Part shown: positions 7,825-28,347 of the stretch, one piece after another
Numbering within the stretch: position 1 is the first letter of the stretch
Layout of the letters: each line of letters opens with the position of its first letter
Assembly: GCA_963730015.1 (NCBI GenBank)
Contig: CAVSPZ010000002.1
Coordinates: 138,142 to 202,141 of the forward strand
Origin: an uncultured Acidobacteriota bacterium
GTDB taxonomy: Bacteria; Acidobacteriota; Terriglobia; Terriglobales; Acidobacteriaceae
DNA length: 64,000 nucleotides
Direction: 5' to 3'
Program-made: the position numbers and the translations under genes
The notes under the pieces: model-generated
What the model was told of the DNA's origin: nothing
Database searches by the model: none
The model's input: the letters and a program-made list of their open reading frames with translations, nothing else

Positions 7825-8200
7825 AATCCGCCCCACAAGGCTTAAGGAAATTGCCAGAATGCTTGAGACGACCGACACCGCCGCCCGCGCAGCCGTTTGG
7901 CGTGAATTTAGACGAGCGCGGTTGAAGCGCTTGAGAAGAAGCCCCCAGGAGAGGCGTCAATGCATTATGAAAGAGCGCCCCGCTTCAGAAGGTCGAAGCC
8001 GGATGAGACGCCGCCTCCGCTCCGCTGCGCTGTGCTGGGCTTCGCTCCGCTACGGCGGCGCTAGAGAGTAACTGCAGTGGTGTGCGCGGTGGAAAAGGAC
8101 TACAGGAGAGTATAGGCAAGTCGGCGGGAGAATGGCACTTTACCTTGAGGGAAAGACAAGCGTCGACACGAATGAGCTTTCCCCCAAGGAGGCAACTCCA

Positions 8201-10548: not shown

Positions 10549-11580
10549 TTAGCATGGTTGCCTCCCGGCAGAGCCCGCTTCCGTTTCACCCGGCGAGGTC
10601 ATTGTAGCTGCGGTAGAAGAGTGTGCAAATCTTAAAGATGCCGTCTGCTGCCGGCGAAGTTGTCGCTGCCTACGAGCGTCTTCTAACTTGCGATCGCGAG
10701 CCGCGTGGATCTCGGCCTGTCGTCCGGTGAGCCTGTCCTGCGGCGTCACATAGCCGATCGCGCTGTGCAGTCGCACCGTGTTGTAGTGATCCACGTACAT
10801 TTGAATCAAACGGCGCGCATCGTCCAGGGTCAACGGCGTCAGAGGCCGAATGCACTCCCGTTTGAGCGACTTATGCCAGCGTTCGATTTTTCCGTTCGAT
10901 TGCGGGTAAAACGGTGAGGTGCGCACGTGCGTCATCCCCGAGATGCGAATGAACTCCTTGAAGTCCCGCGCGATAAACTGCGGTCCGTTGTCGGAGATGA
11001 TCCGCGGCTTGGCGTCCGGGTACTTCTCCTTGGCTCGTTCCAGAATCCTCTCGATATCAGCTTCCTTCATCGACTCTCGCAAATCCCAATGCACCAGAAA
11101 ACGGCTGCATCCATCCAGCACGCTGCATAGGTAATAGAACGTGCCCGACAGGTTGATATAGGAAACATCGACATGCCAGTGCTGGTGCGGCTCGAGCGGC
11201 TGTTCGAAGCCGGTGCCCTTGCGCGACGGCTTCGCTTTCCAGCGCGACAGCAGTCCCGCTTGTCGCAGCACGCGCCATACGCTCGCCGGACTCACGGCCA
11301 CCACATCGTGATCTAACATCATGAACGTTAGTCGCCGATAGCCTTCCAACGGATTCTTCAGATGGAAACTCACGATCGCTTCCTTCTCCCACCGCTCCAA
11401 CCAGAAGTCTCGGGGCACCCAACCGTTGTGCTCATTCACGCGTCCATAGCGCTGCCGCCAGTCGTAGAACTTGCTCACGGTAACGCCCAGCCACGCAATG
11501 AATCGGCCGACGCTGATCTCACTCTTCTCCGACCAGCGCCGGACGAAATCTACCACCTGATCCCGCACATCGTGTGGCAC
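10549..11580 (-). CDS. IS3 family transposase OrfB (DDE integrase core)
   Basis: HWHVDVSY, ISDNGPQF and SPFYPQSNGKIERWHKSLK form an rve-type DDE core. It lies in the -1 frame relative to orfA. Confidence 0.9.
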   Translation of the reverse strand: MPHDVRDQVVDFVRRWSEKSEISVGRFIAWLGVTVSKFYDWRQRYGRVNEHNGWVPRDFWLERWEKEAIVSFHLKNPLEGYRRLTFMMLDHDVVAVSPASVWRVLRQAGLLSRWKAKPSRKGTGFEQPLEPHQHWHVDVSYINLSGTFYYLCSVLDGCSRFLVHWDLRESMKEADIERILERAKEKYPDAKPRIISDNGPQFIARDFKEFIRISGMTHVRTSPFYPQSNGKIERWHKSLKRECIRPLTPLTLDDARRLIQMYVDHYNTVRLHSAIGYVTPQDRLTGRQAEIHAARDRKLEDARRQRQLRRQQTASLRFAHSSTAATMTSPGETEAGSAGRQPC

Positions 11581-13380: not shown

Positions 13381-14730
13381 CTAGTTGTCGCGAATGAACT
13401 GTCTCAGTGCAGTTAGAAAGTCGCGGTTGTCACTCTTCCGATGACTTTTCGAGGCCGGGGTGTCAGTGCTTGCGACGAGTTTGATCCCCGTCTCGTGACG
13501 AACGGGATAGGAGAAACGACCTTCTCCGTCGCTTGCACCCACCGACGAACACGCCTGAGAAACCAGGATAATTAGGCATATCTTGTCGCGTTGTTCCCCC
13601 ATCGCGATTTGACGGAACGTGACAATCTCTCGCTCATACTCCAAATACTCGGTCAACACGTCGCGAGCGACCTTCAGGCGGTTTTCGAGATTCTTACCAT
13701 CGCCAATACCGACGATTTCTCGCTGGTCGGTTACACCGATAATGAGAACACCGCCCGTTGTATTCGCAAAACTTGCGACATCTTCCGCAAATGTTCTTTT
13801 GGCCTCCCTCCGCGCCGGCTCGTCTTTCACGTGCCAAATGTTGAGTGTCTCCTTGAAGTCCCACATCTGCGGTTCGGTCGTTTTAACCTTGCTCGTCTTT
13901 GTGATGAACGTGCGCCAAAACTCGTCACTCTCATACAGCTCTCGTTGCTCTTTGAACTTCTCAATGTCGATTTTTATATTCCGAAGTGAGTCTCTGATCT
14001 CTAAGAAATAGTCGGCGCACTTGCCATAAACGGCGTGGGAGGTTCTTCTGACCACCGTTCGCTCGGGTGGAATGATCTCCGTATCAGGAGGTGTGGTTTC
14101 GGGGTCCATACTCTCGAAAATCTCGAACCCGACTTCATGGTAGGTGTCCCAATAGACAAAGCGCCCTCTCTCACGAACACCAAGGGCAATTTCTGCGAGT
14201 GCACGACGGGTTTCTTTCTCCCATCCGCCGGTTTCTTCGCCAACCCATTTCATATCCCGGTCGGCCATCCTGGTAGAACCCCAGACACGGTAGGTAAAGA
14301 GCATGCACGGCGCCATTGCATGGCGCTTTTCAAGCAACCCGACATATTTGTGCAAAGCATCGATCTCGGCCTGGTGTTTATCGGCAAACTCTCTCAGGCT
14401 CAGGAGCAGAACCTCATACGATTCCGTCTCTCTACTTTTCAACTTCGCGGAATCGGTTTTCAAAACCTGCGCCGCGTTTAGCGCCTCTCCGGTCATGGCC
14501 AGCAGTTCGTCAACATTGGTTTCGTTCTCGAAAATCCACCAATGGATCTCGTCTTGACCGACATGGACTCCGAACTCGGTCCACTCCGTCGTCCAGCCAA
14601 ACTCCTTCTTGACTTGACTAAACCGTGCTTGATCCATGGCGTGAGCCGCTTTTAGGATCGCGCCGTGTACTTCTCCGAGCCTTAATGTGGCGTCAGAGAA
14701 CAGGACATCGCGCATGCGGTCATCGAGCAT
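13381..14730 (-). CDS. AlbA_2/Schlafen-type domain protein with large unknown N-terminal domain
   Basis: The C-terminal WDFKETL...EDVASFANTTGGVLIIGVTDQREIVGI matches the AlbA_2 (divergent AAA / Schlafen-like) signature. The first ~290 aa are unrecognisable. Confidence 0.65.
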   Translation of the reverse strand: MLDDRMRDVLFSDATLRLGEVHGAILKAAHAMDQARFSQVKKEFGWTTEWTEFGVHVGQDEIHWWIFENETNVDELLAMTGEALNAAQVLKTDSAKLKSRETESYEVLLLSLREFADKHQAEIDALHKYVGLLEKRHAMAPCMLFTYRVWGSTRMADRDMKWVGEETGGWEKETRRALAEIALGVRERGRFVYWDTYHEVGFEIFESMDPETTPPDTEIIPPERTVVRRTSHAVYGKCADYFLEIRDSLRNIKIDIEKFKEQRELYESDEFWRTFITKTSKVKTTEPQMWDFKETLNIWHVKDEPARREAKRTFAEDVASFANTTGGVLIIGVTDQREIVGIGDGKNLENRLKVARDVLTEYLEYEREIVTFRQIAMGEQRDKICLIILVSQACSSVGASDGEGRFSYPVRHETGIKLVASTDTPASKSHRKSDNRDFLTALRQFIRDN

Positions 14731-14866: not shown

Positions 14867-15232
14867 TCAACATGCATCGATGTAGAAAACCAATTCCCCG
14901 TGTTTTCCGATGGAACTCCGCCATTGTTTGGACAAGCTCCGCATATTGTCGATCAAAACGATCAGGTCATTCCCGTTAACAGCTACCCCTTGTTCCCCCA
15001 TACTGTCTTTGAAACTGGCCGCACTGAAGCGCTCGTCTGCTTCCATGTAGTCCAGAACCTTTCTGCCGTTTTCAAGCCAGACGACCTGTTTGTCCCCGTA
15101 TTCGTGCTGGTCGCTCGCCGTACCCACCCTGGCGGCAAGGTCGTGGAGCAGCACAATCAACTTCTCCGGTTCGATGAAGCAGGACGAGTGTGCACTCCAT
15201 ATTTCTTTCACTGCCCGAAAGCTTTGGCTCAT
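14867..15232 (-). CDS. hypothetical protein, last gene of the E2/E1 cassette
   Basis: 121 aa from the ATG that overlaps the ThiF-like stop (ATGA). No recognisable motif. Confidence 0.45.
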   Translation of the reverse strand: MSQSFRAVKEIWSAHSSCFIEPEKLIVLLHDLAARVGTASDQHEYGDKQVVWLENGRKVLDYMEADERFSAASFKDSMGEQGVAVNGNDLIVLIDNMRSLSKQWRSSIGKHGELVFYIDAC

Positions 15233-16077
15233 TGCCTGACCACCTTCCTTCTCTTGCGTTTGGGTAATTCGTAATCTGCCGAGTGGGTCCTCATCCGCTG
15301 CCATAGGGCCGGGTCGACAGCGAGTGAGGTTGTGCGCCCCGTTCGCAGATTCACGAACCCGCCGTGGTACGAGAGCCGCCCATATCGGAATAGCCGCGCC
15401 AGCATTGCCAGCGCCTGGTAGGCGAGTGTCTGGTTCACGAATGGCTCTTGCCGCGCCAACGCTTCCAACGCGCTGCACGGTGGAAGTCTGTCTTTTTTGT
15501 CGAGCATTGGGTTGATGAGCTCAGGGAAAAGTTCCGAAGCTGTCGGCAAGCGCGAGTCTCGCGCTTTGTTTCGCTGGTTTTCGGGCTGGCCCAACACGAA
15601 CTGACCACTATCGGCATTGTTGCCCAGATCCAGCCAATAGTGGCAGTTCCAGTAGGTTTGCGTGCGCGTCATCGCGTTCCGGGCGGCACGAGAATCAACG
15701 CAGCCGATCAGGATGTCGGTCTCATGTCCCCAGTTCTCATCGACGAAGTGTGGCACTCCTTTCCAGCCAAGGCCCCAAAACAGATTGATCCGGGTGGCGA
15801 GTACTGTCGCCTTGTGCAGTCCGATCTCACTCTCACTGAAAGGTTGGCGGACGCAGTTGGTGCGGGAGATCCGGTCGCCGTCGACCAAGGTCACGTCCAG
15901 TCGATGCGGATGTCCTAAAGCGACGATGGCTTGGTGCAGATACGGCAATCCGGCCGCTATGGCGCTTCCCGTCCCACCACAACCGACTACGGTGATCAGA
16001 ACGTTCTTTTGCAGCAGTGCGCCAGGAATCTTGTGCTCAGTCTTCGTGGCGGTTGTCGTTTCGATAGCTGTGGTCAT
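15229..16077 (-). CDS. ThiF/E1-like adenylyltransferase (PRTRC-type)
   Basis: VVGCGGTGS Rossmann loop, LVDGDRISRTNCVRQPF adenylation motif and ILIGCVDSRAAR. The overall pattern is as in PRTRC-system ThiF family proteins. Confidence 0.85.
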   Translation of the reverse strand: MTTAIETTTATKTEHKIPGALLQKNVLITVVGCGGTGSAIAAGLPYLHQAIVALGHPHRLDVTLVDGDRISRTNCVRQPFSESEIGLHKATVLATRINLFWGLGWKGVPHFVDENWGHETDILIGCVDSRAARNAMTRTQTYWNCHYWLDLGNNADSGQFVLGQPENQRNKARDSRLPTASELFPELINPMLDKKDRLPPCSALEALARQEPFVNQTLAYQALAMLARLFRYGRLSYHGGFVNLRTGRTTSLAVDPALWQRMRTHSADYELPKRKRRKVVRQ

Positions 16078-16798
16078 CGTTCCTCACGAATTCCGCGAGT
16101 GTCTGCGGCAGCTTCACCAGGTATTTCTCTGGAAACGCTTTTTGTCCCGCTAGGGATTGCCACATCGCTAGGAAGCCGCCGCGAAACCGAACGTGTTTGC
16201 GAACGCCTGAGGCGTGCGTGAATTCGCTCTGGAAGAACGACTCCTCCCACAAGTCAACGGCAGTGACCGACTTCTCCTGCGGAATCTTCATGCTCCCAGT
16301 GCAACACACGCCGTTGTCGTAGCAGTTCCAGTACGGCGCCATGCAAAGTTGTGTTGCGGCCCTAGGCCGTTCGTTCTTAGCAAGAGCTCGAACCCACAAG
16401 TGAGATCCGCACGCCTTGAGCAGCAAGGGCGGGTGGGGATAGCGCTTGCCATTCATGCCCTCCAAGGCAAGGTCGTTGCCCCGGTCGCTGAAGAACATCG
16501 TCCGTTCGCAGGCTGGGGTCCACCACACGATCATTTCCGCCGTGCGCACCAGCACGCGCGCCGGCAAAATCTCGGCTGGAACCGACCTTCCAAGACCGGC
16601 CATCAGGTCGATCAGCATCTGCGGCGTCATCAACTGGCCTTCCGCCAGTCGCGCTACGTCGCCGTCATGGATCACTTCATGGAGAGTTACAAAAGGATGG
16701 CGATACGGGTAGCCGTCATAGCTGCTCTTCCCGTACACGAGCAGTGCCCGGCTCAACCGGAAGTCCTGACTTGATCCGATGTTCACGGAGATATTCAT
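16037..16798 (-). CDS. E2/UBC-like protein (Prok-E2_B / PRTRC protein B-like)
   Basis: LSRALLVYGKSSYDGYPYRHPFVTLHEV, MAPYWNCYDNGVCCTGSMKIP and FFQSEFTH are motifs I associate with PRTRC protein B. This is from memory, not searched. Start set at MNISVN. Confidence 0.6.
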   Translation of the reverse strand: MNISVNIGSSQDFRLSRALLVYGKSSYDGYPYRHPFVTLHEVIHDGDVARLAEGQLMTPQMLIDLMAGLGRSVPAEILPARVLVRTAEMIVWWTPACERTMFFSDRGNDLALEGMNGKRYPHPPLLLKACGSHLWVRALAKNERPRAATQLCMAPYWNCYDNGVCCTGSMKIPQEKSVTAVDLWEESFFQSEFTHASGVRKHVRFRGGFLAMWQSLAGQKAFPEKYLVKLPQTLAEFVRNDDHSYRNDNRHED

Positions 16799-17819
16799 CG
16801 TAGAGATCCCTGACGAGTTCAACGATCTTGGCAGCGGAGGCCAACGACCGAAGCATCGCGCTGGCGTGATCGAAGACGCGTCGCATTTCTTCATCCAGCT
16901 CTTTCACCGGCCTGTTGAGGTGAATGGGAAGCGCCACATTCGGCTGGCAAGGGCCGTTTTCGCCCATGTGTTGCGCCTCTTCATCAAAGCAGGCGTTAAT
17001 TGCATCACCCTCGTACCAGGTGATCAGACATCCGGGCCGGGAATAGTCAGCATCCGAGAGCCACGTGTCGATGCCTGGTACGTCCTTCTCACTGATCTGG
17101 CCGGGCCACGCATGCTCGTGCCCTTGGCCATGAGCATCCATCTCAAGCAGGTGGCGGATCAGCTCGCGGGCCACGCTTGTGTACACCCGGATCTCCTCAA
17201 GCAAGCTTCTGGCTCTCCTGTATTTGAGCGTCTTCGAGTGCCTCTTGATACAGACCGGGATTTCCATATCCACTTTGCGATAGGTCGATGCTTCCAGTTC
17301 CTCGTCGCTCAGATCCTCCATCCACATCTCGGCGTGCTCCTGGGCGTCGAGGTAGTCGTACACGCGCATCCATTTGTACAGGTTGGTGGTGAGGACCTCG
17401 TAGAAAGCGACCGGCAGAAGATTATGCTCGGCTTCAAGGCGTGCGAGTGTCGCGCCAATTGGAATGGAAGCGGCAGCCTCGTAGTCGCCGACCAGATACA
17501 GATGATCAGCCATTCCCTCTCTATCGGCTTCAACCTGATTTCGCTCTTGCTCCGTCAGCTCGAAGAGACTGTCCGTAATTCGCAGGTCGCCAACCCAGAC
17601 TTTCTTAACATCAGCGGCGCGATTCTGAGAGCAAAACCTCCTAAAACCGCGTTCGACAAAGTCCACCGCGCTACCCGACCAGTCATTGGAGCGGCAAATT
17701 CCCAGCCGCAACAGGCTCATTCCCAAAACCGCAGCAGGCCCTTCATCCCACCTCGTGCAGTAGCGCCATCGAATTCCCTTGAGCCTGGGGAACGTAACGT
17801 CTAGCGGCAGTCCGATCAC
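16716..17819 (-). CDS. hypothetical 367-aa protein of the E2/E1 cassette (possibly PRTRC protein F-like)
   Basis: A GTG start overlaps the stop of the 88-aa ORF (GTGA). Acidic and helical. Contains HEHAWPGQISEKD. No confident domain call. Confidence 0.5.
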   Translation of the reverse strand: MIGLPLDVTFPRLKGIRWRYCTRWDEGPAAVLGMSLLRLGICRSNDWSGSAVDFVERGFRRFCSQNRAADVKKVWVGDLRITDSLFELTEQERNQVEADREGMADHLYLVGDYEAAASIPIGATLARLEAEHNLLPVAFYEVLTTNLYKWMRVYDYLDAQEHAEMWMEDLSDEELEASTYRKVDMEIPVCIKRHSKTLKYRRARSLLEEIRVYTSVARELIRHLLEMDAHGQGHEHAWPGQISEKDVPGIDTWLSDADYSRPGCLITWYEGDAINACFDEEAQHMGENGPCQPNVALPIHLNRPVKELDEEMRRVFDHASAMLRSLASAAKIVELVRDLYDEYLREHRIKSGLPVEPGTARVREEQL

Positions 17820-18082
17820 ACGAGCGGTGGAATGACCACGCCGCTGGGCGGTAAGTATCGATCTCCGAGTTCGGCTCCGTCCTGAGCGTATTTGAGCGAG
17901 TCGAACGCCTTGCCTAGAATTTCCCCCACTTCGAATGCTTCTGGACATTGCTTCAATTGCTCCACGATGGGATCGTTCGTATTGGCGCGGCCATGCGTAG
18001 CTTCTGCCAACGCTCGCAGCACCCGCTTCGCATCTTCATCGATGGTTCGGCAGGCTGCGGCAGCTAGTATCCTGTGCTTCAT
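17816..18082 (-). CDS. hypothetical 88-aa protein, first gene of the E2/E1 cassette
   Basis: ORF coupled to the next gene by a GTGA overlap. Predicted helical. No C-terminal Gly-Gly. Confidence 0.4.
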   Translation of the reverse strand: MKHRILAAAACRTIDEDAKRVLRALAEATHGRANTNDPIVEQLKQCPEAFEVGEILGKAFDSLKYAQDGAELGDRYLPPSGVVIPPLV

Positions 18083-18273
18083 GGAAATCGCCTCTTATGA
18101 CGTTTGATTGACCGTGGAATTGTGGCCCTTGTGTAAGACAGTACGCCTCCATCCACGTTCGGCTGTCGATGGACTCACGAAGCTCGATGTCGGCAGTTAC
18201 GTTCCCGAGTCTGTGATATTTGCGCTCTGGGCAGGCTGTTGGGTATGGGCTACAATTGCCGCAGAGGAACCGT

Positions 18274-18480
18274 ATGATGACTGACCCAGCCTCCGCCATC
18301 AAACGTCAAGTTCACCAATTGGTTGATCTGCAAATCGAAACGCTGCGACAACCGTCGTGTTTGACTACTTCGGATCTGCTTGACTATCGCGTGCGTTCCG
18401 AGAAAATCGCCGGGTTGTACAAAGAGTTGGACCAGACACGAAGAACCAGCTTCAAGGGCCAATTGCGCAGAGCGTCTTAG
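18274..18480 (+). CDS. small conserved hypothetical protein (paralog of 6371..6577)
   Basis: MMTDPASAIKRQVHQLVDLQIETLRQPS... is colinear with the 6371 ORF. GAGGAA precedes the ATG. Confidence 0.5.
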   Translation: MMTDPASAIKRQVHQLVDLQIETLRQPSCLTTSDLLDYRVRSEKIAGLYKELDQTRRTSFKGQLRRAS

Positions 18481-18485
18481 CTGAA

Positions 18486-18980
18486 ATGTCAAATCCAGTG
18501 TATGTGTCCAACGTTCGGATTGAACGGCGCTCGGGGCCGCTTCGAATAGCGCGCCTGCCCGGGGAATCGCAGCCGGTATTCTTCAGCGTCCATGGAGCCA
18601 TTGCCGAGCATTATGGATTAGATCCAGCAAAACTACCCGAATCGCATGCGGCGACGCTTGATTATGTTGTGGCCGCCCTTGGTGGTTGAATGATCGGAAC
18701 CTTCGGGGGCGCGCTGGATGCGCGCAAAATAGATGCGAGCAATGGCCGGTTGCGTGCCGAAGTGAGAGGGGAAATCGAATCCGATCAGGGGGTTCTAGTA
18801 ATTCGCCGAGTTCACGTTCACTACTTACTTGATGGAGCCGAGCAGGCCAGGGAGACCGTGGAACGCGTCCATCGCGTATACGCGGACAAGTGTCCCGTTT
18901 ACAAGACACTGCGGCCTGCTTTCGAAATTACCTCAGATTTTGAACTTACAAGGACAAGCGCGACGGAAGGTACGCGATGA
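18486..18980 (+). CDS. OsmC/Ohr family peroxiredoxin with in-frame TGA at 18687-18689 (candidate selenocysteine)
   Basis: ORFs 18486..18689 and 18690..18980 are in the same frame, separated only by TGA. The joined sequence reads ..DYVVAALGG-[TGA]-MIGTFGGAL.., where OsmC proteins have the peroxidatic Cys. The second Cys motif, KCPVYKTL, is present. Confidence 0.7.
18709..18725 (+). promoter_or_regulatory. candidate SECIS-like hairpin
   Basis: GCGCGC-TGGAT-GCGCGC (6-bp stem, 5-nt loop) begins 22 nt after the U of the in-frame UGA. Confidence 0.3.
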
Positions 18981-19663
18981 CTCTTCAACAAAAGCTGGAT
19001 GACTTTAAAGCAAACTTCGAATCCGGCGGCCCTCCTTACAACGCTCCCAAGGCGGTGATCGAAATCTTTCATCGGGCTACGGAAGAGCTGCGCCAGTCCG
19101 GATTGGCCGAACGCGCTCTGAAGACCGGCGATCGGGCGCCGGCATTCGCCCTGAATAACCAGGACGGAAACTCGATCTCGTCTGCCGAACTCCTTGCAAA
19201 AGGCCCGCTGGTAATCACTTTCTTCCGTGGCCACTGGTGACCCTACTGCAACATGGAGCTGGAGGCTCTACAAGCAGCTTTGCCCGAAATACAGCGCCTG
19301 GGAGCCAGCCTAGTGGCAATTTCCCCGCAATTGGAGAGGTACGGACGTTCGATCCACCGTCGCCTCAGTCTGGGTTTCGATGTACTGACGGACCGTGGGT
19401 TGCAAGTCGCAGCACAATTTGGCCTCGTATTCACGCTTCCCGATTACCTGAAAACGGTTTATGTACAGTTCGGAAACAAGTTGGACGAGTTCCACGGCGA
19501 GAACGCTTTCCGCTTGCCGATGCCCGCACGATACGTCGTTGACCAACAAAGCCTGATTCGTAGCGCCAACGTGAGCCCGGATTACACTATACGTCCGGAC
19601 CCAAGTGAAACCATCAGCACGCTGGAGGAACTCAGGAAGGCGCGCTGCATGGAGCTCGATTAG
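18977..19663 (+). CDS. AhpC/TSA-type redoxin with in-frame TGA at 19238-19240 (candidate selenocysteine, UxxC)
   Basis: ORFs 18977..19240 and 19253..19663 share a frame. The joined sequence reads ..VITFFRGHW-[TGA]-PYCNMELEAL.., the W-C-P-Y-C redox motif with TGA replacing the first Cys. The start overlaps the OsmC-like stop (ATGA). Confidence 0.7.
19254..19270 (+). promoter_or_regulatory. candidate SECIS-like hairpin
   Basis: TGGAGC-TGGAG-GCTCTA (6-bp stem including one G-U, 5-nt loop) begins 16 nt after the U of the in-frame UGA. The loop starts UGGA, like the hairpin at 18709. Confidence 0.3.
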
Positions 19664-19865
19664 ATCTTCGGAAACGACCGGAAGTGCTGCAGGACTGGCG
19701 CCAAGATTTGCTATCGATTTCATGCTTCTACCTGTGTGAAACGATGTAAACACCGGTCGGTGATGTTGTACATGCACCCACTGCTGTCCAAATTAGCCGG
19801 GATTGAGGAGCAGGAGTAAGGGAATTGGGGCATTTTCTGCTTCTCAGTGGTCGCTCCCAGGTTGA

Positions 19866-21112
19866 GGTTGCCATTCTGCTGTCCAAGTTGGGTTACCAGG
19901 AAAGCGGGATTTGCTCGGCGATGTGAGCGAGTTGGGGCGGGGGTTGAAAGGGTTGATCGATCCAGGAGAACAGATCGCGATAGACGAACAGTTGCTGGCG
20001 CAGCAGAGCGGCGAGATTGGACAGGCTCCAACCGAAGCGGGCACGCAGTTGCAGGTACTTGAGCAGGAGCATGGCAATCAGCGCGGTCCAGACCTGAATC
20101 TGCAGCGCATTGGCGCTGATGCCAACGAAAGTTTTGATGCGGAGGTTTTGTTTGAGCGCCTTGAAAAACAATTCGATCTGCCAGCGCTGACGGTAGATAG
20201 CGGCGACAGTGGAGGCGGCAAAGCGGCGATGATTGGTGAGAAACACCAGGGTGCGTTGCTGCGCGTCGTCCCAGACCTCGATGCGGCGCAGGAACAGATC
20301 GCGCTCGCCGCTGCGGGCCAACTTGTACAGAAAGATGATCTCATCGTGCTGGACGGGGCCGCGCTCAGGCACGGGGCGGCGTTCCACAACACCGTAATCG
20401 GCGTTGTCTTTCATGCGGGTGACGAAGTAGACATCGTCGGCGTCGAGCGCAGAGAACCAGGCATAGTCGGTATAGCCACGGTCGAAGACCACGATGGCGC
20501 CGGGATCGAAGCGCAGCGTGCGGGCCACGCGGCTCTCATGCACGCGGCCTTCGGTGACGAGGGCAAAACTGGGCAGCAGCCCTTGATGATCGAGCAGCAG
20601 ATGCAGCTTCACAGCGCCCTTGGTGCGCCGGTACTGCGCCCAGTCGAAGACGCTGGCGCAGAGTTCGATCAGGGTGGCGTCCAGGCTCAGCAGTTTGTTC
20701 TTGAAGCGGAAACCATGCGGACCGGAAGCTTCGCGGCAGCGACCCAGCAGTTGATAGAACACGGCGCGGTACAACTGCCATGGCCGGTGCTCGTTGGCAT
20801 AGGCCAAGGTGGAGCGCTTGGGCGCATCGGGCAATCCCAAGTGCCGCAACTTGCCTTCGCTGGCGGCCAGTCCGCCGCAAATCTCGCGCAAGGACTGCGC
20901 CCGCCCCAGGTGACAGAACAACATGGCCACGAACTGTCCCCAGCAACTGAACCCGCGAGCGTGGCGCTCGGCCCGGTGCTCGGAAACGGCCTGTTCAAAC
21001 TCTGGCCGGGAAAACAACTGCAACATCTGGCTGAAAATGCTGGATACTCGTATCACGGCGGTGGTGGCCCTCCCTACGATTCACGTCTCGCAACGCAAAC
21101 CGTAGCAGAGTT
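19866..21112 (-). mobile_element. IS4 family insertion sequence (ends approximate)
   Basis: Single DDE transposase ORF. Weak terminal inverted similarity (GGTTGCCATTCTGCTGTCC near 19866 versus CCGTAGCAGAGTTCTACC near 21095). Confidence 0.7.
19893..21056 (-). CDS. IS4 family DDE transposase
   Basis: SLDAT, VFDRGY and YRQRWQIELFFKALK (Y-2-R-3-E-6-K signature). The N-terminal FSQMLQLFSRPEFEQAV domain is typical of the IS4Sa-like group. Confidence 0.9.
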   Translation of the reverse strand: MIRVSSIFSQMLQLFSRPEFEQAVSEHRAERHARGFSCWGQFVAMLFCHLGRAQSLREICGGLAASEGKLRHLGLPDAPKRSTLAYANEHRPWQLYRAVFYQLLGRCREASGPHGFRFKNKLLSLDATLIELCASVFDWAQYRRTKGAVKLHLLLDHQGLLPSFALVTEGRVHESRVARTLRFDPGAIVVFDRGYTDYAWFSALDADDVYFVTRMKDNADYGVVERRPVPERGPVQHDEIIFLYKLARSGERDLFLRRIEVWDDAQQRTLVFLTNHRRFAASTVAAIYRQRWQIELFFKALKQNLRIKTFVGISANALQIQVWTALIAMLLLKYLQLRARFGWSLSNLAALLRQQLFVYRDLFSWIDQPFQPPPQLAHIAEQIPLSW

Positions 21113-22306
21113 CTACCCCCGCCGCTCAAAACCTAATTTGGACAAGAGTGACATGCACCCAAACAGAAATGATCTCGGGATTCTGTCAGAGAGAAGCCTG
21201 GACGTCGATATTTCTTCAAGTCGCTGCAGACATCTCGAATGAAACTGCGTCCCATTATCGCTCAACTCGCCTGCATCCAGCTTCGCACGCAAAGCGAGAA
21301 GGGCTGCCGATACCTCACTTTCGAGAAGAGGACGTTCCTCAATATCAAGATACTTCGGCCGCAGAATCTCCCGGAGATACTCAGAACGCTGCTCTAAGGC
21401 CGTCTTCACGACATCGTCTGGGAGCAGCGCCCGTTTCATCTTACTCTCCAGTCTTTTTCCCGCGGCTTGGGCGGGATGCAGCATTTGGTCAACCGTGTTT
21501 CGGAGCCAGGCGACTAGTTCCTCCCGGCGAATCTTCTTTTCATTTGGCGCTTTCCGGAACTTTGCTGTTGCTGCATCCCACGCCTTTCGTACAAGCTTCG
21601 CGTATAACTCTTCTAGCTGATCAGACGCAACCAGATACCCAAGACTGTTGATAGCCCGATGGAGACGCTGAAGATTGCGATGCTTCTCGGAATCCAAGTC
21701 ATGAGCTATCTGCCAGAATGTCTCTTGTACCCAGAAGGCGACATCGTGGTTGTTGGGAGAACGAACGCTTGCCAGTTTCTCACACAGCTTAGTCGCAAGC
21801 TGTCGAAGTTCATCCGCAGCTTTGATTCGTGCCTCGCAGTTTCGGACAAGGCTCAATGGCTCAAGATCTTTGTTTATTGGCCGTGCAGTTACGATTCGAA
21901 AACAACACGCTTCCTGGCAGCGGTCATTCGCGAGCGACTTCTCCACAATGCACTTGCCAACACCTTTACTGTCACGGGTGGGTTCGGCTTCCGTGAGTTT
22001 TGCAATTGACCACAACTGTTCAAGCTCACTTCCCTTGACTTGAATAAACTCGACTTGCAGTCCACAACCTGATTGCATTTCCAAAAGCAACATCACGTCA
22101 TCGTGAGTTTCGCACCAGATTTCCTTAATTGTGGAATCGACCAAAGCGTCGATGCACAGACCTGCCACGATGTGATCTTGGAAACCCAGACCCCGGCGTG
22201 CAACTTCTCCACCTTGTTCCAACGGTTCCAGATCAAATATTGATTGCGGACGCGGCAATGTTTCTGGTGCTTGATCAGACATAGCTAAGTTGTCCGTTTC
22301 CAACAC
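21113..22306 (-). CDS. DUF4297/Cap4-like dsDNA nuclease domain protein
   Basis: The N-terminal GGEVARRGLGFQDHIVA...IWCETHDDVML...VEFIQVKG fits the DUF4297 PD-(D/E)xK pattern. Long helical C-terminal part. The stop abuts the IS4 end. Visibly AT-richer than its surroundings. Confidence 0.6.
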   Translation of the reverse strand: MLETDNLAMSDQAPETLPRPQSIFDLEPLEQGGEVARRGLGFQDHIVAGLCIDALVDSTIKEIWCETHDDVMLLLEMQSGCGLQVEFIQVKGSELEQLWSIAKLTEAEPTRDSKGVGKCIVEKSLANDRCQEACCFRIVTARPINKDLEPLSLVRNCEARIKAADELRQLATKLCEKLASVRSPNNHDVAFWVQETFWQIAHDLDSEKHRNLQRLHRAINSLGYLVASDQLEELYAKLVRKAWDAATAKFRKAPNEKKIRREELVAWLRNTVDQMLHPAQAAGKRLESKMKRALLPDDVVKTALEQRSEYLREILRPKYLDIEERPLLESEVSAALLALRAKLDAGELSDNGTQFHSRCLQRLEEISTSRLLSDRIPRSFLFGCMSLLSKLGFERRG

Positions 22307-22576: not shown

Positions 22577-22651
22577 GGCGGCGTCGTCTAACGGCCAGGA
22601 TGCGGCCCTTTCAAGGCTGAGATGGGAGTTCGATTCTCCTCGCTGCTACCA
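22577..22651 (+). tRNA. tRNA-Glu(UUC)
   Basis: Manual cloverleaf. Acceptor GGCGGCG/CGCTGCT, D-arm GTCT..GGAT as in Glu tRNAs, anticodon stem CGGCC/GGCTG, loop CTTTCAA, T-loop TTCGATT, CCA encoded. Confidence 0.8.
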
Positions 22652-22848
22652 AACCTATGAGTACACAAACGATTGAACTCGAAGGCTTTGAGATCGAGCT
22701 TGCATCGGACCTTTACTGCGGTCACGGCGGGGATCATCGGGAATTGGTTGATCGTGCGCGTACGGATCGGAGGAGACTTGGCCACAACGTCGATGAATCG
22801 GCCGTTTTGTGTGTACGGTGCATGAAAGCAATACCGCTGAAAGCGTGA

Positions 22849-22922
22849 TGCCGGGTCGTCTAGTGGCAGGACCCTGGACTTTGAATCCGGGTACGGGCGT
22901 TCGAATCGCTCCCCGGCAGCCA
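22849..22922 (+). tRNA. tRNA-Gln(UUG)
   Basis: U1-A72 and G73 (Gln identity). Anticodon stem CTGGA/TCCGG, loop CTTTGAA, T-loop TTCGAAT, CCA encoded. Confidence 0.85.
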
Positions 22923-22941
22923 GTTCTTTGACAATCGAAAT

Positions 22942-23012
22942 TCCCTCCTCGTCCAATGGCAGGACGCTGCGCTCTGAACGCGGAAATCGTGGTTCAAGTC
23001 CACGGGAGGGAG
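22942..23012 (+). tRNA. tRNA-Gln(CUG)
   Basis: Acceptor TCCCTCC/GGAGGGA, G73, loop CTCTGAA, T-loop TTCAAGT. Followed by only CC before the next tRNA. Confidence 0.8.
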
Positions 23013-23014
23013 CC

Positions 23015-23088
23015 GGAGCTATGGTCTATCGGCAGGATGGCTGACTGTCTATCAGCAGGGACGGGTTCAATTCCCGTTAGCTCCGCCA
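23015..23088 (+). tRNA. tRNA-Asp(GUC), U at position 37
   Basis: Acceptor GGAGCTA/TAGCTCC, G73, CCA. Anticodon stem GCTGA/TCAGC. Loop CTGTCTA has a pyrimidine at position 37. Confidence 0.8.
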
Positions 23089-23097
23089 AAAGTTTGC

Positions 23098-23172
23098 GGG
23101 AGATTCGTCCAGCGGCTAGGACACTGGCCTCCAGATCCAGTTACGAGGGTTCGAGTCCTTCATCTCCCGCCA
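23098..23172 (+). tRNA. tRNA-Trp(CCA), irregular anticodon arm
   Basis: Acceptor GGGAGAT/ATCTCCC, G73, CCA. Loop CTCCAGA with a C31-U39 mismatch; the alternative is a 5-bp stem ACTGG/CCAGT with a 9-nt loop. Confidence 0.6.
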
Positions 23173-23174
23173 GA

Positions 23175-23249
23175 GCGAGCATGGTATCGCGGCTGGTGCC
23201 TCGGGCCTCCAACCCGATGACGCGAGTTCAACTCTCGCTGCTCGCTCCA
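23175..23249 (+). tRNA. tRNA-Gly(UCC), C at position 33
   Basis: Acceptor GCGAGCA/TGCTCGC, U73, CCA. Perfect anticodon stem TCGGG/CCCGA. Loop CCTCCAA. Confidence 0.7.
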
Positions 23250-23250
23250 A

Positions 23251-23326
23251 GCGGAAGTCGTCTAGTGGCCAAGACGCGACGTTGCCAACGTCGAGAGCGC
23301 GGGTTCGAGTCCCGCCTTCCGCTCCA
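23251..23326 (+). tRNA. tRNA-Gly(GCC)
   Basis: Acceptor GCGGAAG/CTTCCGC, U73, CCA. Stem CGACG/CGTCG, loop TTGCCAA, T-loop TTCGAGT. Fully canonical. Confidence 0.85.
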
Positions 23327-23345
23327 AGTTAGTAAGCATGTTCGA

Positions 23346-23421
23346 GGCGGTGTAGCCAAGACAGCAAGGCATCTGCCTGCAAAGCAGACAAGCGGGAGTG
23401 CAATTCTCCCCACCGCCTCCA
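23346..23421 (+). tRNA. tRNA-Cys(GCA), atypical D- and T-loops
   Basis: Acceptor GGCGGTG/CACCGCC, U73, CCA. Stem TCTGC/GCAGA, loop CTGCAAA. The D-loop lacks GG and the T-loop is TGCAATT. Confidence 0.7.
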
Positions 23422-23442
23422 GGTTGGCGTAAAGAAGTTTGT

Positions 23443-23514
23443 GCTGGTGTAGCTCAGTGGGAAGAGCTCGGGCCTCGTAAGTCCGTGATCGGCGTTCGAA
23501 TCGCCGCGCCAGCT
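23443..23514 (+). tRNA. tRNA-Thr(CGU)
   Basis: Acceptor GCTGGTG/CGCCAGC. D-arm GCTC-AGTGGGAA-GAGC. Loop CTCGTAA, T-loop TTCGAAT. Followed by CC and then the next tRNA. Confidence 0.85.
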
Positions 23515-23516
23515 CC

Positions 23517-23591
23517 GCTGGTATAGCTCAACGGGAAGAGCAGGCGCACGGTAAGCGCCCGACCGCAGTTCGAGGCTGCGTGCCAGCTCCA
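23517..23591 (+). tRNA. tRNA-Thr(GGU), C at position 33
   Basis: Acceptor GCTGGTA/TGCCAGC, CCA. Perfect stem GGCGC/GCGCC. Loop ACGGTAA. Confidence 0.7.
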
Positions 23592-23598
23592 CAAGTTT

Positions 23599-23674
23599 GC
23601 TGCTGTGGCCGACATACAAAGGCACCTGCCTTGTAAGCAGGTCGATGCTGGTGGGAATCCAGCCAGCAGCTCCA
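23599..23674 (+). tRNA. tRNA-Thr(UGU), atypical D- and T-loops
   Basis: Acceptor GCTGCTG/CAGCAGC, CCA. Stem CCTGC/GCAGG, loop CTTGTAA. The D-loop GACATACAAA lacks GG and the T-loop is TGGGAAT. Confidence 0.65.
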
Positions 23675-23682
23675 AATTCGAT

Positions 23683-23758
23683 GGCGGGATTGGCCGAATG
23701 GCTTAGGCGCTGGATTGTGGCTCCAGTTACGAGAGTTCGATTCTCTCATCTCGCCCCA
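23683..23758 (+). tRNA. tRNA-His(GUG) with encoded G-1
   Basis: An extra 5' G opposite C73. Stem CTGGA/TCCAG, loop TTGTGGC, T-loop TTCGATT, CCA encoded. Confidence 0.85.
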
Positions 23759-23761
23759 ACT

Positions 23762-23835
23762 GGGCGGTTCGTATAAGGGGATTACCCACGGCCTGCAACC
23801 GTGAAATGCGAGTTCGAGTCTCGCACCGTCCACCA
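23762..23835 (+). tRNA. tRNA-Ala(UGC), C at position 33
   Basis: Acceptor GGGCGGT/ACCGTCC gives the G3-U70 Ala identity pair. A73, CCA. Perfect stem CACGG/CCGTG. Loop CCTGCAA. Confidence 0.75.
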
Positions 23836-23841
23836 AAGTTT

Positions 23842-23915
23842 GGCTCGGGAACTCGACGGCAGAGTGCTGGTCTGAAAAGCCAGTGGATACGGTTCAATTC
23901 CGTGCCGAGCCACCA
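23842..23915 (+). tRNA. tRNA-Phe(GAA)
   Basis: Acceptor GGCTCGG/CCGAGCC, A73, CCA. Loop CTGAAAA, T-loop TTCAATT. G instead of U at position 8. Confidence 0.75.
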
Positions 23916-24360: not shown

Positions 24361-26031
24361 GTGGGCATGGCCAATGTCTTGAACGAAGAGAAGAAACAAC
24401 AAGTCTTAGCTCTGGGACGGCTGGGCTGGTCGCTGCGGCGCATCCAGCAAGCGACCCATGTCCGTCGGGAAACCGCCAGCGCTTATCTGAAAGCGGCCGG
24501 GATTGCAGTGCGTCTGCCCAGTGGTTGGGGGCGGGGCGAACCAAAACCGGCCAAGGAAGTGATCACCGACTCCGGTGCGGCAAAATCGGCCATTCCGGTG
24601 ATTCCCGATCCCCTCGACCCTAACTGCAACCCCAACCCCAAAAACCTTTCTAATAAGGGAAAAGCAAGAGCAACTTCAAAACCGGCCAACGAGAACGAGG
24701 TGATCACCGACTCTGCCGCGGTCCCCGGCGCCAGTGCCTGCGAGCCATACCGGGAAGCCATCGACTTGGGGATCAGCCGCGGCCGCAATGCCATGGCGAT
24801 CTGGCAGGATTTGGTTTCCGAGTACGGATTCGCCACCAGCTACCAAAGCGTGCAACGCTTCGTGCGGAAGCGGCGCGGAACGCAAACCCCCGAAGCCCGC
24901 GTCGTGATTGTCACCGCGTCCGGCCAGGAGGCGCAAGTCGATTACGGCACCGGCCCCATGGTGCGCGATCCCGAGAGCCGCAAGTATCGGCGCACCCGGC
25001 TGTTCGTGATGACGCTGGGCTGCAGCCGCAAGTCGGTTCGTCTGCTAACCTTCCGCTCCAGTTCGCGCATCTGGGCCGAACTGCACGAACGCGCCTTTCG
25101 CCGGCTGGGCGGAGCCACCCGCATCGTCGTGCTCGACAATCTGCGCGAGGGCGTGCTTGTCCCCGACATTTACGATCCCGCTCTCAATCCTCTCTATCGC
25201 GACGTGCTCGCGCACTACGGCGCAGTCGCCATGCCGTGCCGGATCCAAGATCCGGATCGCAAAGGCAAAGTCGAATCCGGCGTCGGTCATGCGCAGAAGA
25301 CACCGCTGAAAGGCTTGCGCTTCGAGACTCTGGAAGAAGCCCAAGCCTACCTCGATCACTGGGAACAACGCTGGGCCGACACGCGCATCCACGGCACCAC
25401 CAAACGGCAGGTCGCCGCCATGTTTGCGGAAGAGAAACCCACGTTGCTGCCACTGCCGCTGGAACCCTTTCGTTACTACCAGTACGGTGAGCGCATCGTG
25501 CATCTGGATGGTTGCGTCGAGGTCGAGGCCGCCTACTACGGCGCACCGCCAGGCTGGATCGGGCGCGTGCTGCGCGTGCAATGGGATGAGCTGTACGTTC
25601 GTCTGCTCGATCCTAAAACCGGGCAACTGCTGCGCGAACACGTGCGCCAGAAGCGCGGTTGGTATCGCATTAAAGAAGATGACCACCCCAAGCGAACACC
25701 ACTGCGTACCTCCCAACTGCTGTGGCGAGCCGGTCGTGCTGGGTCGCACATCGGTGCGCTCTGCGATGCCATCCACCACCAGCAAGGCGAGGTCGGTGTG
25801 CGCCGCATTCTCGGCGTTCTCTCCCTAGCCAAGAAGTACGGCACCGCGGCGGTCGATGAAGCCTGCGCCGCTGCGCTCGACATGGGAGTGCAGGAATACC
25901 GCTTCGTGCGTCGCTATCTGGAACGCTGCCCACAAGCCCCGCTGAGTTTGCAGCAAGTCGATCCTCTGATCCGCGAGCTGGTGCAATACCGCGACTTCAT
26001 CAACTACAGAACTAAGGAGATAGAAGAATGA
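24361..26031 (+). CDS. istA: IS21 family transposase IstA
   Basis: N-terminal HTH (LGWSLRRIQQATHVRRETASAYL). DDE core (QVDYG, VLDN, KGKVESGV). Typical IstA C-terminus. Confidence 0.9.
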   Translation: MGMANVLNEEKKQQVLALGRLGWSLRRIQQATHVRRETASAYLKAAGIAVRLPSGWGRGEPKPAKEVITDSGAAKSAIPVIPDPLDPNCNPNPKNLSNKGKARATSKPANENEVITDSAAVPGASACEPYREAIDLGISRGRNAMAIWQDLVSEYGFATSYQSVQRFVRKRRGTQTPEARVVIVTASGQEAQVDYGTGPMVRDPESRKYRRTRLFVMTLGCSRKSVRLLTFRSSSRIWAELHERAFRRLGGATRIVVLDNLREGVLVPDIYDPALNPLYRDVLAHYGAVAMPCRIQDPDRKGKVESGVGHAQKTPLKGLRFETLEEAQAYLDHWEQRWADTRIHGTTKRQVAAMFAEEKPTLLPLPLEPFRYYQYGERIVHLDGCVEVEAAYYGAPPGWIGRVLRVQWDELYVRLLDPKTGQLLREHVRQKRGWYRIKEDDHPKRTPLRTSQLLWRAGRAGSHIGALCDAIHHQQGEVGVRRILGVLSLAKKYGTAAVDEACAAALDMGVQEYRFVRRYLERCPQAPLSLQQVDPLIRELVQYRDFINYRTKEIEE

Positions 26032-27284: not shown

Positions 27285-28187
27285 CTACATGCGATCTTTG
27301 AGCGCAGTCGAAATCTCTTGAGCAAGATTGGATTCGAGCCGCTCTGAGCCATCGTAACCATCATGGATGAATCGAACGCGTCCGCTGGCGTCCAGCAATA
27401 CCAGAGTGGGATACCCATTTACTCCCAGTTGGACTGCGCTTGCATTTTCTGTGAATGCGACCGGGAGTTTTAATCGCATCTTCTTAGCGAAGGCTTGCGC
27501 TATTTCCTCTGTGTCTCCTCCGGCGTGTGCGTCAACCGCCCAGAAAAGTACATCTCCACTGCTCCTGTAGGAGGCATAAACCTTTTCGATTCTTGGCAAT
27601 TCCTGCCAGCAGGGTTCACACCATGTGGCCCAAAACGCTAGGACGACAACCTTGCCTTTCAGTGCGGAAGAACTGACGACTTTACCATCTTCGGTGGTCA
27701 GGGAGAATTCGGGCGCAGGCGTGTCCACGTGCTTGCCTGAAAGCATTCCCATTAGCGGAGGCAACACAAACATCGAAGCGGAGACAATGAGAGCGAGCGC
27801 AGAGAGCAAGAAATTGACGCCTGTTACTCGCCTGCCCCGTGCCCAATTCCGTCGAGCTTGGACTCCGCATAGGGTCATAAGCGTCGAGATCGCAAAGAAT
27901 ATAGCGAGCACTAGGTTCGCTCCGAAGGCGATGCCGAAAAAGGAAAGAATTAGAACTGGAACAGCCATTCCAGAAATGATTAAGACACCCTTCATCCAAG
28001 GCTCTTGCGGTGCGCTCTTACCACGGAGGAGTCCCAATCCAGCGCAGAGTGAGCCGCCGACGATGAAGAACCAGCGAAGATCGAACTTGATGTTGGTCCC
28101 GAAGACGAGAACCATGAACAGGACTAAACCCACAAAGCCTGTGAGCACATCGAGCAGCCCGGATTTCAAGGGAGATGAAATTGTCAT
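27285..28187 (-). CDS. membrane-anchored TlpA/ResA-like thiol:disulfide oxidoreductase
   Basis: Several N-terminal TM helices, then a thioredoxin fold with VVLAFWATWCEPCWQELP. GGAGAA precedes the ATG at 28187. Confidence 0.8.
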   Translation of the reverse strand: MTISSPLKSGLLDVLTGFVGLVLFMVLVFGTNIKFDLRWFFIVGGSLCAGLGLLRGKSAPQEPWMKGVLIISGMAVPVLILSFFGIAFGANLVLAIFFAISTLMTLCGVQARRNWARGRRVTGVNFLLSALALIVSASMFVLPPLMGMLSGKHVDTPAPEFSLTTEDGKVVSSSALKGKVVVLAFWATWCEPCWQELPRIEKVYASYRSSGDVLFWAVDAHAGGDTEEIAQAFAKKMRLKLPVAFTENASAVQLGVNGYPTLVLLDASGRVRFIHDGYDGSERLESNLAQEISTALKDRM

Positions 28188-28347
28188 GGATTTCTCCAGC
28201 ACAATGGGATTGCGTGGATACGAGCATTCTGTGGAACAGATACGAACGCACGGTACTGTTGGTTCCGTCATTCCGGCGACCGATTCGGTGCGGCAACAGT
28301 AAGGGAAGTTCAGTGATGGGATGCGCCCTGAAGGTCGTTATCACTCG

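Follow-up and report, generated by a model that had tools for sequence, protein, structure and literature searches.

How can two overlapping redox genes be functional if each of them is interrupted by an in-frame TGA codon? This question is raised by positions 18486-19663 of a 64,000-nt stretch of DNA from an uncultured Acidobacteriota bacterium (Terriglobales; Acidobacteriaceae; GCA_963730015.1, contig CAVSPZ010000002.1, forward strand 138,142-202,141). We refer to the whole stretch as the window, and all coordinates are positions within it unless another contig is named. An earlier note on this DNA had proposed that the two genes form a selenoprotein operon, and our analysis strongly supports the selenoprotein reading of both genes. 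We assign a probability of roughly 0.88 to the explanation that the locus is a two-gene operon, both genes of which encode selenoproteins by means of UGA codons for selenocysteine (Sec, U) and selenocysteine insertion sequence (SECIS) elements.

The first gene, an OsmC-like gene referred to as gene A in this text, contains a single in-frame TGA in the context ...LDYVVAALGG-TGA-MIGTFGGALDAR... The second, a Prx-like gene (gene B), likewise contains only one, in the context ...FFRGHW-TGA-PYCNMELEALQ..., for which the predicted Sec-spanning peptide is GHW-U-PYCNMELEALQAALPEIQR. Both codons, at 18687 and 19238, lie in frame without any frameshift, as had been noted before. In-frame TGA junctions were searched for throughout the window; these two sites alone looked real, and the remainder looked like noise. 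Read as truncated products, the genes would give 67 aa (gene A) and 87 aa (gene B). The stop codon of gene A overlaps the start codon of gene B (ATGA), which is a usual sign of translational coupling and suggests a single operon.

Both TGAs coincide with a redox-active Cys of the respective protein family. The earlier note had read AALGG-TGA-MIGTFGG in gene A, with the TGA at the place of the peroxidatic Cys of OsmC/Ohr proteins, and FFRGHW-TGA-PYCNMEL in gene B, at the place of a WCPYC motif, and the alignments with homologues bear this out. Twelve clusters of full-length homologues have Cys where gene A has its TGA, and the codon also aligns with the first conserved Cys of 1LQL, an OsmC-like structure. 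Such Cys forms are uncommon (12 among the top 120 clusters, at 47-61% identity). In gene B, the TGA falls on the first Cys of a W-C-P-Y-C motif that does not otherwise vary among 16 homologues.

The TGA itself is conserved among relatives. A scan of a genome collection with one genome per species yielded at least 567 stretches that encode a gene-A relative, the best 80 of which were used. These are labelled almost all as Acidobacteriota metagenome-assembled genomes (MAGs) from the Terriglobales, Acidobacteriaceae, Sulfotelmatobacter, Acidiferrales, Bryobacteraceae and Vicinamibacterales, with single contigs labelled Dormiibacterota and Acidimicrobiales. A scan of a metagenome collection provided 80 further loci. 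It had been seeded with Cys-type homologues to collect Cys-form DNA, but all 80 loci returned carry TGA, and the Cys forms were fetched one by one instead. The codon of Sec68 is thus TGA in 160/160 gene-A relatives from these two unbiased scans (80 species-level genomes and 80 metagenome contigs), which range from 60 to 95% identity, and in 9 further loci. No other stop and no frameshift was found in the 67 codons 5' and the 85 codons 3' of this TGA in 165 loci, and a start codon is located exactly 67 codons upstream in 153 of them. With the window as reference, gene A and its relatives show a ratio of nonsynonymous to synonymous substitution rates (dN/dS) of ~0.09 before the TGA and ~0.13 after it. 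Given these values and the lack of extra stops, both halves are translated in one frame and under purifying selection. Gene B carries TGA in 16 related loci, 551 nt downstream of the gene-A TGA, and also in three loci with orthologues of 60% protein identity that have the identical core hairpin, AUGGAGCUGGAGGCUCUA. This amounts to 19/19 other Sec-type loci (20 with the window).

It would be conceivable that both TGAs arose as nonsense mutations that inactivated the genes, or as sequencing errors, and that the genes are pseudogenes. Gene callers split both of them; NCBI and ENA give fragments of 96, 87 and 132 aa; the region is rich in insertion sequences (IS); and one related gene-B copy, on metagenome contig L003, is frameshifted. 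However, the same codon recurs in every one of the independent gene-A relatives over the whole identity range, the two halves show the dN/dS values given above without a second stop or frameshift, and the gene-B TGA is present in every other Sec-type locus. A pseudogene was therefore rejected for the family, on the grounds of TGA conservation, dN/dS and intact frames, and we see virtually no chance that it explains the locus. The same counts agree with the earlier argument that two chance nonsense mutations are unlikely. Alignment with Cys homologues and the search for TGA orthologues both favour Sec, and since the orthologues carry TGA, the codon is not a strain-specific lesion. To judge from these alignments, the gene-A TGA is a conserved codon rather than a lesion.

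Each TGA is followed by a hairpin inside the coding sequence. The two hairpins described earlier, at 18709-18725 and 19254-19270 with loops that start with UGGA, are present as stated. In gene A, the apical loop begins 25 nt after the UGA and always consists of UGGA plus any base, with G at the second position, and the hairpin spans the codons Gly-Ala-Leu-Glu/Asp-Ala-Arg. We compared codon use at these positions with that elsewhere in the same genes, using 157 unique gene sequences. The first Ala is encoded by GCG in 156/157 and the second in 154/157 (elsewhere 34% for both), Leu by CTG in 157/157 (elsewhere 37%), and both Arg (CGC/CGT) and Gly (GGC/GGT) use the listed codons in 156/157 (elsewhere 54% for both). 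The stem pairs are retained in 136-138 of 138 unique 60-nt segments. Tolerated changes are G:C to G:U or C:G to U:G, and in one locus (L147) a compensatory double change replaces G:C by A:U at the cost of an Ala to Val exchange. The hairpin has disappeared from three of the four distinct Cys-type genes (Leu CTC, Ala GCC, and so on). Codon choice and base pairing indicate that the gene-A hairpin is constrained at the RNA level, beyond coding needs. In gene B, the apical loop begins ~19 nt after the UGA, and the UGGA loop is common to both elements. A G to A change in the stem of two relatives preserves the pair (U:G to U:A); the sequence of the closest Cys form, AUGGAGAUGGAAGCUCUA, disrupts the stem.

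The criteria of bSECISearch, attributed to Zhang and Gladyshev in 2005, reportedly comprise a stem-loop just 3' of the UGA, a distance of 16-37 nt from the UGA to the apical loop and a G among the first two loop positions. Both hairpins resemble bacterial SECIS elements, as known from E. coli fdhF and used by bSECISearch: they lie within the coding sequence at similar positions (25 and ~19 nt), their upper stem of 6-8 bp is GC-rich, and the second base of the loop is G. They differ from the fdhF element in their loops, which are UGGAN and not of the GGUC type, and no bulged U was identified in them. The earlier statement that they are compatible with bacterial SECIS elements gains weight from a nucleotide conservation that exceeds protein needs. 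Taken together, the comparison supports both hairpins as SECIS elements and candidate SelB sites.

The codon 3' of the gene-A TGA is ATG in 126/139 unique sequences and a Leu codon (CTG, CTT or CTC) in 13/139. The frequent ATG would allow gene A to be truly split, with a stop at the TGA and a restart at the adjacent ATG, which would yield 67-aa and 96-aa polypeptides that form an OsmC fold without the first catalytic residue. The 96-aa open reading frame (ORF) is indeed predicted by gene callers. However, Leu takes the place of Met in the 13 remaining sequences and the Cys homologues likewise have Leu or Met at this position, so that the Met is a protein residue and not a start signal. Moreover, the TGA of gene B is followed by CCC, and no start occurs for 4 codons. 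A split would also delete the residue on which the chemistry of the family depends, and it would leave the frozen hairpin unexplained. The Leu alternatives, the CCC of gene B and the hairpin led us to reject a split gene, which we regard as extremely unlikely.

NCBI and ENA give gene A only as a 96-aa C-terminal fragment named 'OsmC family protein'. Dozens of the 90%-identity clusters from a protein search, at 80-96% identity, consist of a 96-aa fragment that begins right after the TGA; one of them comprises 352 member sequences. "Full-length" relatives from JGI (~65% identity) show W at the Sec position, but the DNA of locus L001 has TGA there, which identifies the W as an artefact of gene calling. 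Among the protein clusters P0001-P0120, database artefacts at this codon comprise Trp in 24 clusters (JGI) and Gly in 2 clusters (another source). Two JGI homologues of gene B that show "WW" also carry TGA in their DNA.

The W and G entries could alternatively be taken as a sign that the UGA is read through as an amino acid other than Sec, either by Trp/Gly recoding or by a suppressor that inserts Ser or Cys (an allo-tRNA or a tRNA-Sec-like tRNA-Cys). Acidobacteria have unusual allo-tRNAs that have been proposed as nonsense suppressors (PMC5389517), and the window holds an array of 14 tRNA genes as well as an odd tRNA-like gene. However, TGA is the ordinary stop of 7/17 domain-supported ORFs in the window, gene A included, which excludes a general code change, and the anticodon UCA is absent from the tRNAs of the window, including the 14-gene array. 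In addition, the codon is always found at the position of the redox Cys and with a conserved hairpin after it, which Sec decoding requires and a general suppressor does not. Canonical tRNA-Sec, SelA and SelD genes flank the gene in two relatives (L023 and L042), in L023 together with SelB. Since TGA is a normal stop in the window, the hairpin is conserved and Sec genes adjoin relatives, code reassignment was rejected, and we consider non-Sec read-through in any form very unlikely.

This linkage to Sec genes argues for Sec as the inserted residue. Four loci (L023, L042, L110 and L120) have a tRNA-Sec no more than a few kb away from the gene-A homologue (ARAGORN and Rfam RF01852, 58-66 bits). 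In L042, SelA, SelD and tRNA-Sec adjoin the homologue (SelB is not among them). Positions 1-6489 of L023, an Acidobacteriota MAG, form a compact Sec island in the order Prx-like(U) - tRNA-Sec - SelD - SelA - SelB - OsmC-like(U). The SelD gene of this island itself has an in-frame TGA (1296-1298) at the Cys17-equivalent position (...SSCAG-TGA-ASK...). Acidobacteria have been given as Sec users (PMC1794560), and Sec use has been documented for an isolate from the Acidobacteriaceae, Occallatibacter riparius, of which three selenoproteins are known (PMC12013277). We infer that the host of the window is Sec-competent, too.

Several observations weigh against the selenoprotein reading. The folding energy of the two hairpins is not above that of dinucleotide shuffles (z of -0.06 for gene A and +0.31 for gene B), so that the case must rest on the comparison with relatives. 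No Rfam model matched them, either at the gathering threshold on the window or at E values up to 10 on 18400-19800, where only tRNAs and chance matches appeared; Rfam contains no usable bacterial SECIS model. One Cys form, L170 (TGT; positions 4001-4474 of a Pyrinomonadaceae MAG), retains the full GC-rich gene-A hairpin, which is therefore not strictly Sec-specific. It is possible that L170 is a recent Sec to Cys conversion. For gene B, the hairpins compared are few and closely related (11 unique sequences plus 2 distinct ones, from 3 loci, at 60% identity), and this small sample makes its SECIS element less certain than the gene-A one. No selA, selB, selD or tRNA-Sec was found within the 64-kb window by ARAGORN, Rfam or a Pfam search of 20 of the largest ORFs. 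Finally, the pair sits in a mobile, IS-rich region, so that it may be a silent passenger copy.

In the latter case, both would be genuine selenoprotein genes by origin, but they would reside on a PRTRC-linked element in a host without Sec machinery and give truncated products only. The mobile setting (PRTRC ThiF and B genes, an IS4 transposase directly downstream, other IS elements) would be in line with this, as would the presence of the same 1.16-kb pair in unrelated flanks of other genomes and the lack of Sec genes in the window. On the other hand, the copy in the window has kept its two reading frames and its two hairpins intact. Close relatives from the same clade have further TGA-containing Prx-like genes nearby (L011, L013, L016 and L033), suggesting Sec-competent hosts, and the Sec trait is documented in the Acidobacteriaceae as mentioned above. 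A silent passenger therefore seems unlikely to us, and we prefer the reading of a selenoprotein operon that can be expressed at full length.

With Cys substituted at the TGA, gene A matched the Pfam family OsmC (PF02566) with an E value of 5.5e-13 (49.6 bits, cut-off 27.5). A PDB search with the single sequence gave nothing meaningful, and a search with the family profile gave only marginal OsmC matches (E value 0.039), among them 1LQL. In the alignment with 1LQL the TGA column corresponds to the first conserved Cys and K-C136-P to R-C-P. The AlphaFold (AF2) model of a Cys homologue (P0024; predicted local distance difference test score 82.5) found solely OsmC/Ohr structures as top matches in Foldseek, with template modelling (TM) scores of 0.6-0.8. 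The conserved residues R80, E98, R108 and R127 are present in the gene-A alignment, and the pair of conserved redox residues of OsmC/Ohr proteins has its counterpart in U68 and the invariant C136. Gene A thus shares the fold and the two redox-residue places with the Cys-based OsmC/Ohr reductases (E. coli OsmC 1NYE/1QWI, Ohr 1N2F/1ZB9, M. pneumoniae 1LQL), but differs from them by a predicted Sec in place of the peroxidatic Cys, a marginal sequence similarity and an extra N-terminal region of ~35 residues.

An OsmC-like selenoprotein family has been described from the Sargasso Sea (COG1765/YhfA type, UxxT, MCS5647933.1, NF041052 OsmC_like_Se). It has the fold superfamily in common with gene A, and the Sec of MCS5647933.1 aligns with that of gene A, at the place of the first conserved Cys and the start of a long helix. 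However, gene A and MCS5647933.1 are only 16% identical (pairwise E value 2e-4), and gene A scores 21 bits with the NCBIfam model NF041052, below its cut-off of 95. The motif differs as well, being U-M/L-x-G-T-F-G-G in the gene-A subfamily (here U-M-I-G-T) and UxxT in the published proteins. Sec forms vastly outnumber Cys forms in the gene-A subfamily, whereas the Sargasso set comprised 3 Sec and 10 Cys forms (PMC1088965), and the former comes from terrestrial Acidobacteriota, the latter from marine plankton. Sequence comparison and the structure model place gene A in the OsmC superfamily, as a separate, Sec-dominant subfamily with Sec at the canonical position that is routinely mis-annotated.

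Gene B, with Cys substituted at its TGA, matched Pfam AhpC-TSA (PF00578) with an E value of 5.7e-23, and Redoxin was also matched. Full-length alignments with two published Prx-like selenoproteins gave 37% (E 7e-53) and 47% (E 4e-78) identity, and U occupies the same position in them. With the published Prx-like UxxC family (e.g. Geobacter sulfurreducens WP_010940744.1) gene B shares the W-U-P-Y-C motif, an N-terminal helical extension and the ISPQ and PDYT.RP motifs, and on the basis of these alignments we assign it to that family. Prx-like UxxC selenoproteins are listed in PMC1088965, in PMC13188914 and in the supplement of PMC12013277. In contrast to the published members, gene B has an acidobacterial host, overlaps and follows an OsmC-like selenoprotein gene and adjoins a PRTRC cassette. 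The frameshifted gene-B copy on the 503-kb contig L003 (about 7970-8384) loses the frame after the TGA, with 82 codons to the next stop versus 136, which may be due either to decay or to a long-read assembly error. We also noticed a Cys-based Redoxin/AhpC-TSA/thioredoxin-like protein of 328 aa in the window (27285-28271, minus strand), 8 kb downstream and without an in-frame TGA.

Pairing with a Prx-like gene is a recurrent feature of the gene-A family. One or the other Prx-like(U) gene accompanies the OsmC-like(U) gene in 71 of ~170 loci. The partner of the type seen in the window (FFRGHW-U-PYC) is located downstream in 16 loci. A second type (FFRSADW-U-PF/YC), which is fused to a DsbD_N domain and looks secreted, is found ~1.1 kb upstream in 55 loci and goes with most gene-A homologues, a clade at ~65% identity (e.g. 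L001, 5-1075; L120, 93-2984). In L120, a DsbD_TM/CcdA-like gene comes next, and then a TlpA-like redoxin and tRNA-Sec. The SECIS element of this second type, GCAGCU-NGUNN-AGCUGC, covaries cleanly (G:C 43 times, G:U once, A:U 4 times). A third Prx-like type with an in-frame TGA (FYRGYW-U-PF/YC) adjoins gene-A homologues in L011 (about 5314, minus strand) and L100 (about 2733, plus strand).

The coordinates of the two genes, of their neighbours and of the Sec island of L023 are compiled in Table 1.

Table 1. Features of the selenoprotein gene pair, its surroundings in the window and the Sec island of L023
Feature	Sequence	Position	Strand	Details and evidence
Gene A, putative OsmC-like selenoprotein gene	window	18486..18980	+	164 codons; ATG 18486; terminal TGA 18978-18980; Sec codon 68; conserved Cys codon 136
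In-frame TGA of gene A (Sec68, predicted peroxidatic residue)	window	18687..18689	+	TGA conservation; alignment to Cys
SECIS-like element of gene A	window	18703..18733	+	core 18709-18725 GCGCGC-UGGAU-GCGCGC; weaker lower stem 18703-18706 / 18730-18733
Codon of Cys136 (K-C-P motif, predicted resolving cysteine of gene A)	window	18891..18893	+	C136-P137 invariant in gene-A alignment; aligns with second conserved Cys (R-C-P) of 1LQL
ATGA overlap, gene A stop / gene B start	window	18977..18980	+	direct sequence reading
Gene B, putative Prx-like thiol:disulfide oxidoreductase selenoprotein gene (W-U88-P-Y-C91)	window	18977..19663	+	228 codons; ATG 18977; stop TAG 19661-19663
In-frame TGA of gene B (Sec88, predicted first residue of UxxC redox motif)	window	19238..19240	+	alignment to first Cys of WCPYC
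SECIS-like element of gene B	window	19246..19277	+	core 19254-19270 UGGAGC-UGGAG-GCUCUA; 4-bp lower stem CUGC/GCAG 19246-19249 / 19274-19277; minimum free energy structure
PRTRC system ThiF-family protein	window	15229-16077	-	TIGR03736, 266.5 bits (cut-off 144.75); Pfam ThiF
PRTRC protein B / Prok-E2_D	window	16037-16894	-	TIGR03737, 171.4 bits (cut-off 131.45); Pfam Prok-E2_D
IS4-type DDE transposase directly downstream of gene B	window	19893..21056	-	Pfam DDE_Tnp_1, DUF4372
Mobile/defence-type regions	window	8132-9271, 10549-11580, 13381-14730, 19893-22306, 24361-26031, 46913-47893		
tRNA-Sec	L023	1087-1181		
SelD	L023	1245-2300		GTG start at 1245
SelA	L023	2237-3796		
SelB	L023	3876-5792		
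OsmC-like(U)	L023	6001-6489		

The block 15308-19640 is syntenic with three metagenome contigs (L002-L004) at 88-89% nt identity, and the synteny stops at 19640. On these contigs, the selenoprotein pair is nested between PRTRC genes and Prok_Ub (PRTRC C) / PRTRC_E. The Prok_Ub / PRTRC_E side is replaced in the window by the IS4 transposase and a Cap4-like nuclease gene; neither Prok_Ub nor PRTRC_E was found beside the pair, the rest of the window not having been searched exhaustively for them. Other genomes share just the 1.16-kb pair (18480-19640), with unrelated flanks and without PRTRC genes. The differing flanks show that the genomic setting of the pair varies, a mobile-element cassette being one of several. 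As in the PRTRC systems of plasmids, islands and integrative and conjugative elements (e.g. the phn island, PMC3318190), ThiF-family and protein B genes above curated cut-offs are present in the window. Unlike the known systems, the elements related to that of the window hold a selenoprotein pair nested between the PRTRC genes. In a plasmid collection, neither gene A nor the PRTRC element gave any match, and the only gene-B homologues were Cys-type ones from Proteobacteria. No gene-A relative was found among viral contigs.

Further mobile or defence genes in the window comprise two IS110 transposases, an IS3-type integrase, a Mu-like transposase and a Schlafen/AlbA_2 protein, besides the IS4 transposase and the Cap4-like dsDNA nuclease already mentioned. 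The array of 14 tRNA genes (22577-23912, plus strand, ~1.3 kb) consists of Glu, Gln (two), Asp, Trp, Gly (two), Cys, Thr (three), His and Ala genes and one (23842-23912) that was found by Rfam only. It is common to L003 (12865-14581) at 84-92% nt identity, a contig that also has a PRTRC-linked selenoprotein pair, and because it is shared in this way the array may belong to the PRTRC-linked element. The odd tRNA-like gene (48233-48309, minus strand) has an anticodon loop of 8 nt; ARAGORN reports it as 'tRNA-???' with anticodon ctcc, and it matched the Rfam tRNA model with 42 bits in a local search.

If the locus is a selenoprotein operon, the in-frame UGAs would be read as Sec by the standard bacterial route, in which SelB brings Sec-tRNA(Sec). 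SelB would be recruited by the stem-loop within the coding sequence, ~19-25 nt downstream of the UGA and with the apical loop UGGAN in both genes, and the terminal UGA of gene A, which lacks such a hairpin, would serve as an ordinary stop. By analogy, gene A may encode a hydroperoxide reductase of the OsmC/Ohr fold, with Sec68 in place of the peroxidatic Cys and Cys136 as the resolving residue. Following OsmC/Ohr chemistry, Sec68 would attack the hydroperoxide to give a selenenic acid and then an Se-S bond with Cys136, which a thiol/selenol oxidoreductase would reduce. The gene-B product (thioredoxin fold, U88-x-x-C91) is proposed to be the dedicated reductant of this bond, since the two genes overlap and OsmC-like(U) and Prx-like(U) genes are recurrently paired. 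The pair would be cargo beside a PRTRC (ThiF / E2-like) mobile-element cassette, and its full-length expression would depend on a Sec-competent host.

Both protein families were recognized as selenoprotein families before, as the earlier note had said. They have been counted among the prokaryotic selenoprotein families since 2004-2005 (PMC1088965, PMC13188914), so that the pair is a further case of known families, and the known principles of Sec decoding are unchanged by these findings. Noteworthy points are the Sec dominance of this OsmC subfamily and its well-defined SECIS element, the wide occurrence of the subfamily in soil Acidobacteriota, the systematic errors in its annotation, the linkage to sel genes that it shows in some genomes and its position next to PRTRC genes here. 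Sec use in this dominant, largely aerobic soil phylum is thereby shown to extend beyond the few families recorded so far. In hundreds of genomes from Acidobacteria and a great number of soil metagenome contigs these proteins appear as fragments, and in others with the wrong active-site residue. The defined SECIS element of the subfamily could be used for building a search model.

We tentatively propose a wider view, which is somewhat less probable than even: the OsmC-like subfamily may be an unannotated, almost obligately Sec-containing family that, with its Prx-like UxxC partner, would form a widespread core of the selenoproteome of aerobic soil Acidobacteriota, joined to selC-selD-selA-selB in some genomes and, in the lineage of the window, captured as a pair in a PRTRC element. 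Such a pair suggests a two-component, selenium-based peroxide defence. The mobile-element setting raises the question of how selenoprotein genes move between hosts. If the pair has been captured by a PRTRC element, selenoprotein genes together with their SECIS elements would spread horizontally among Sec-competent soil bacteria.

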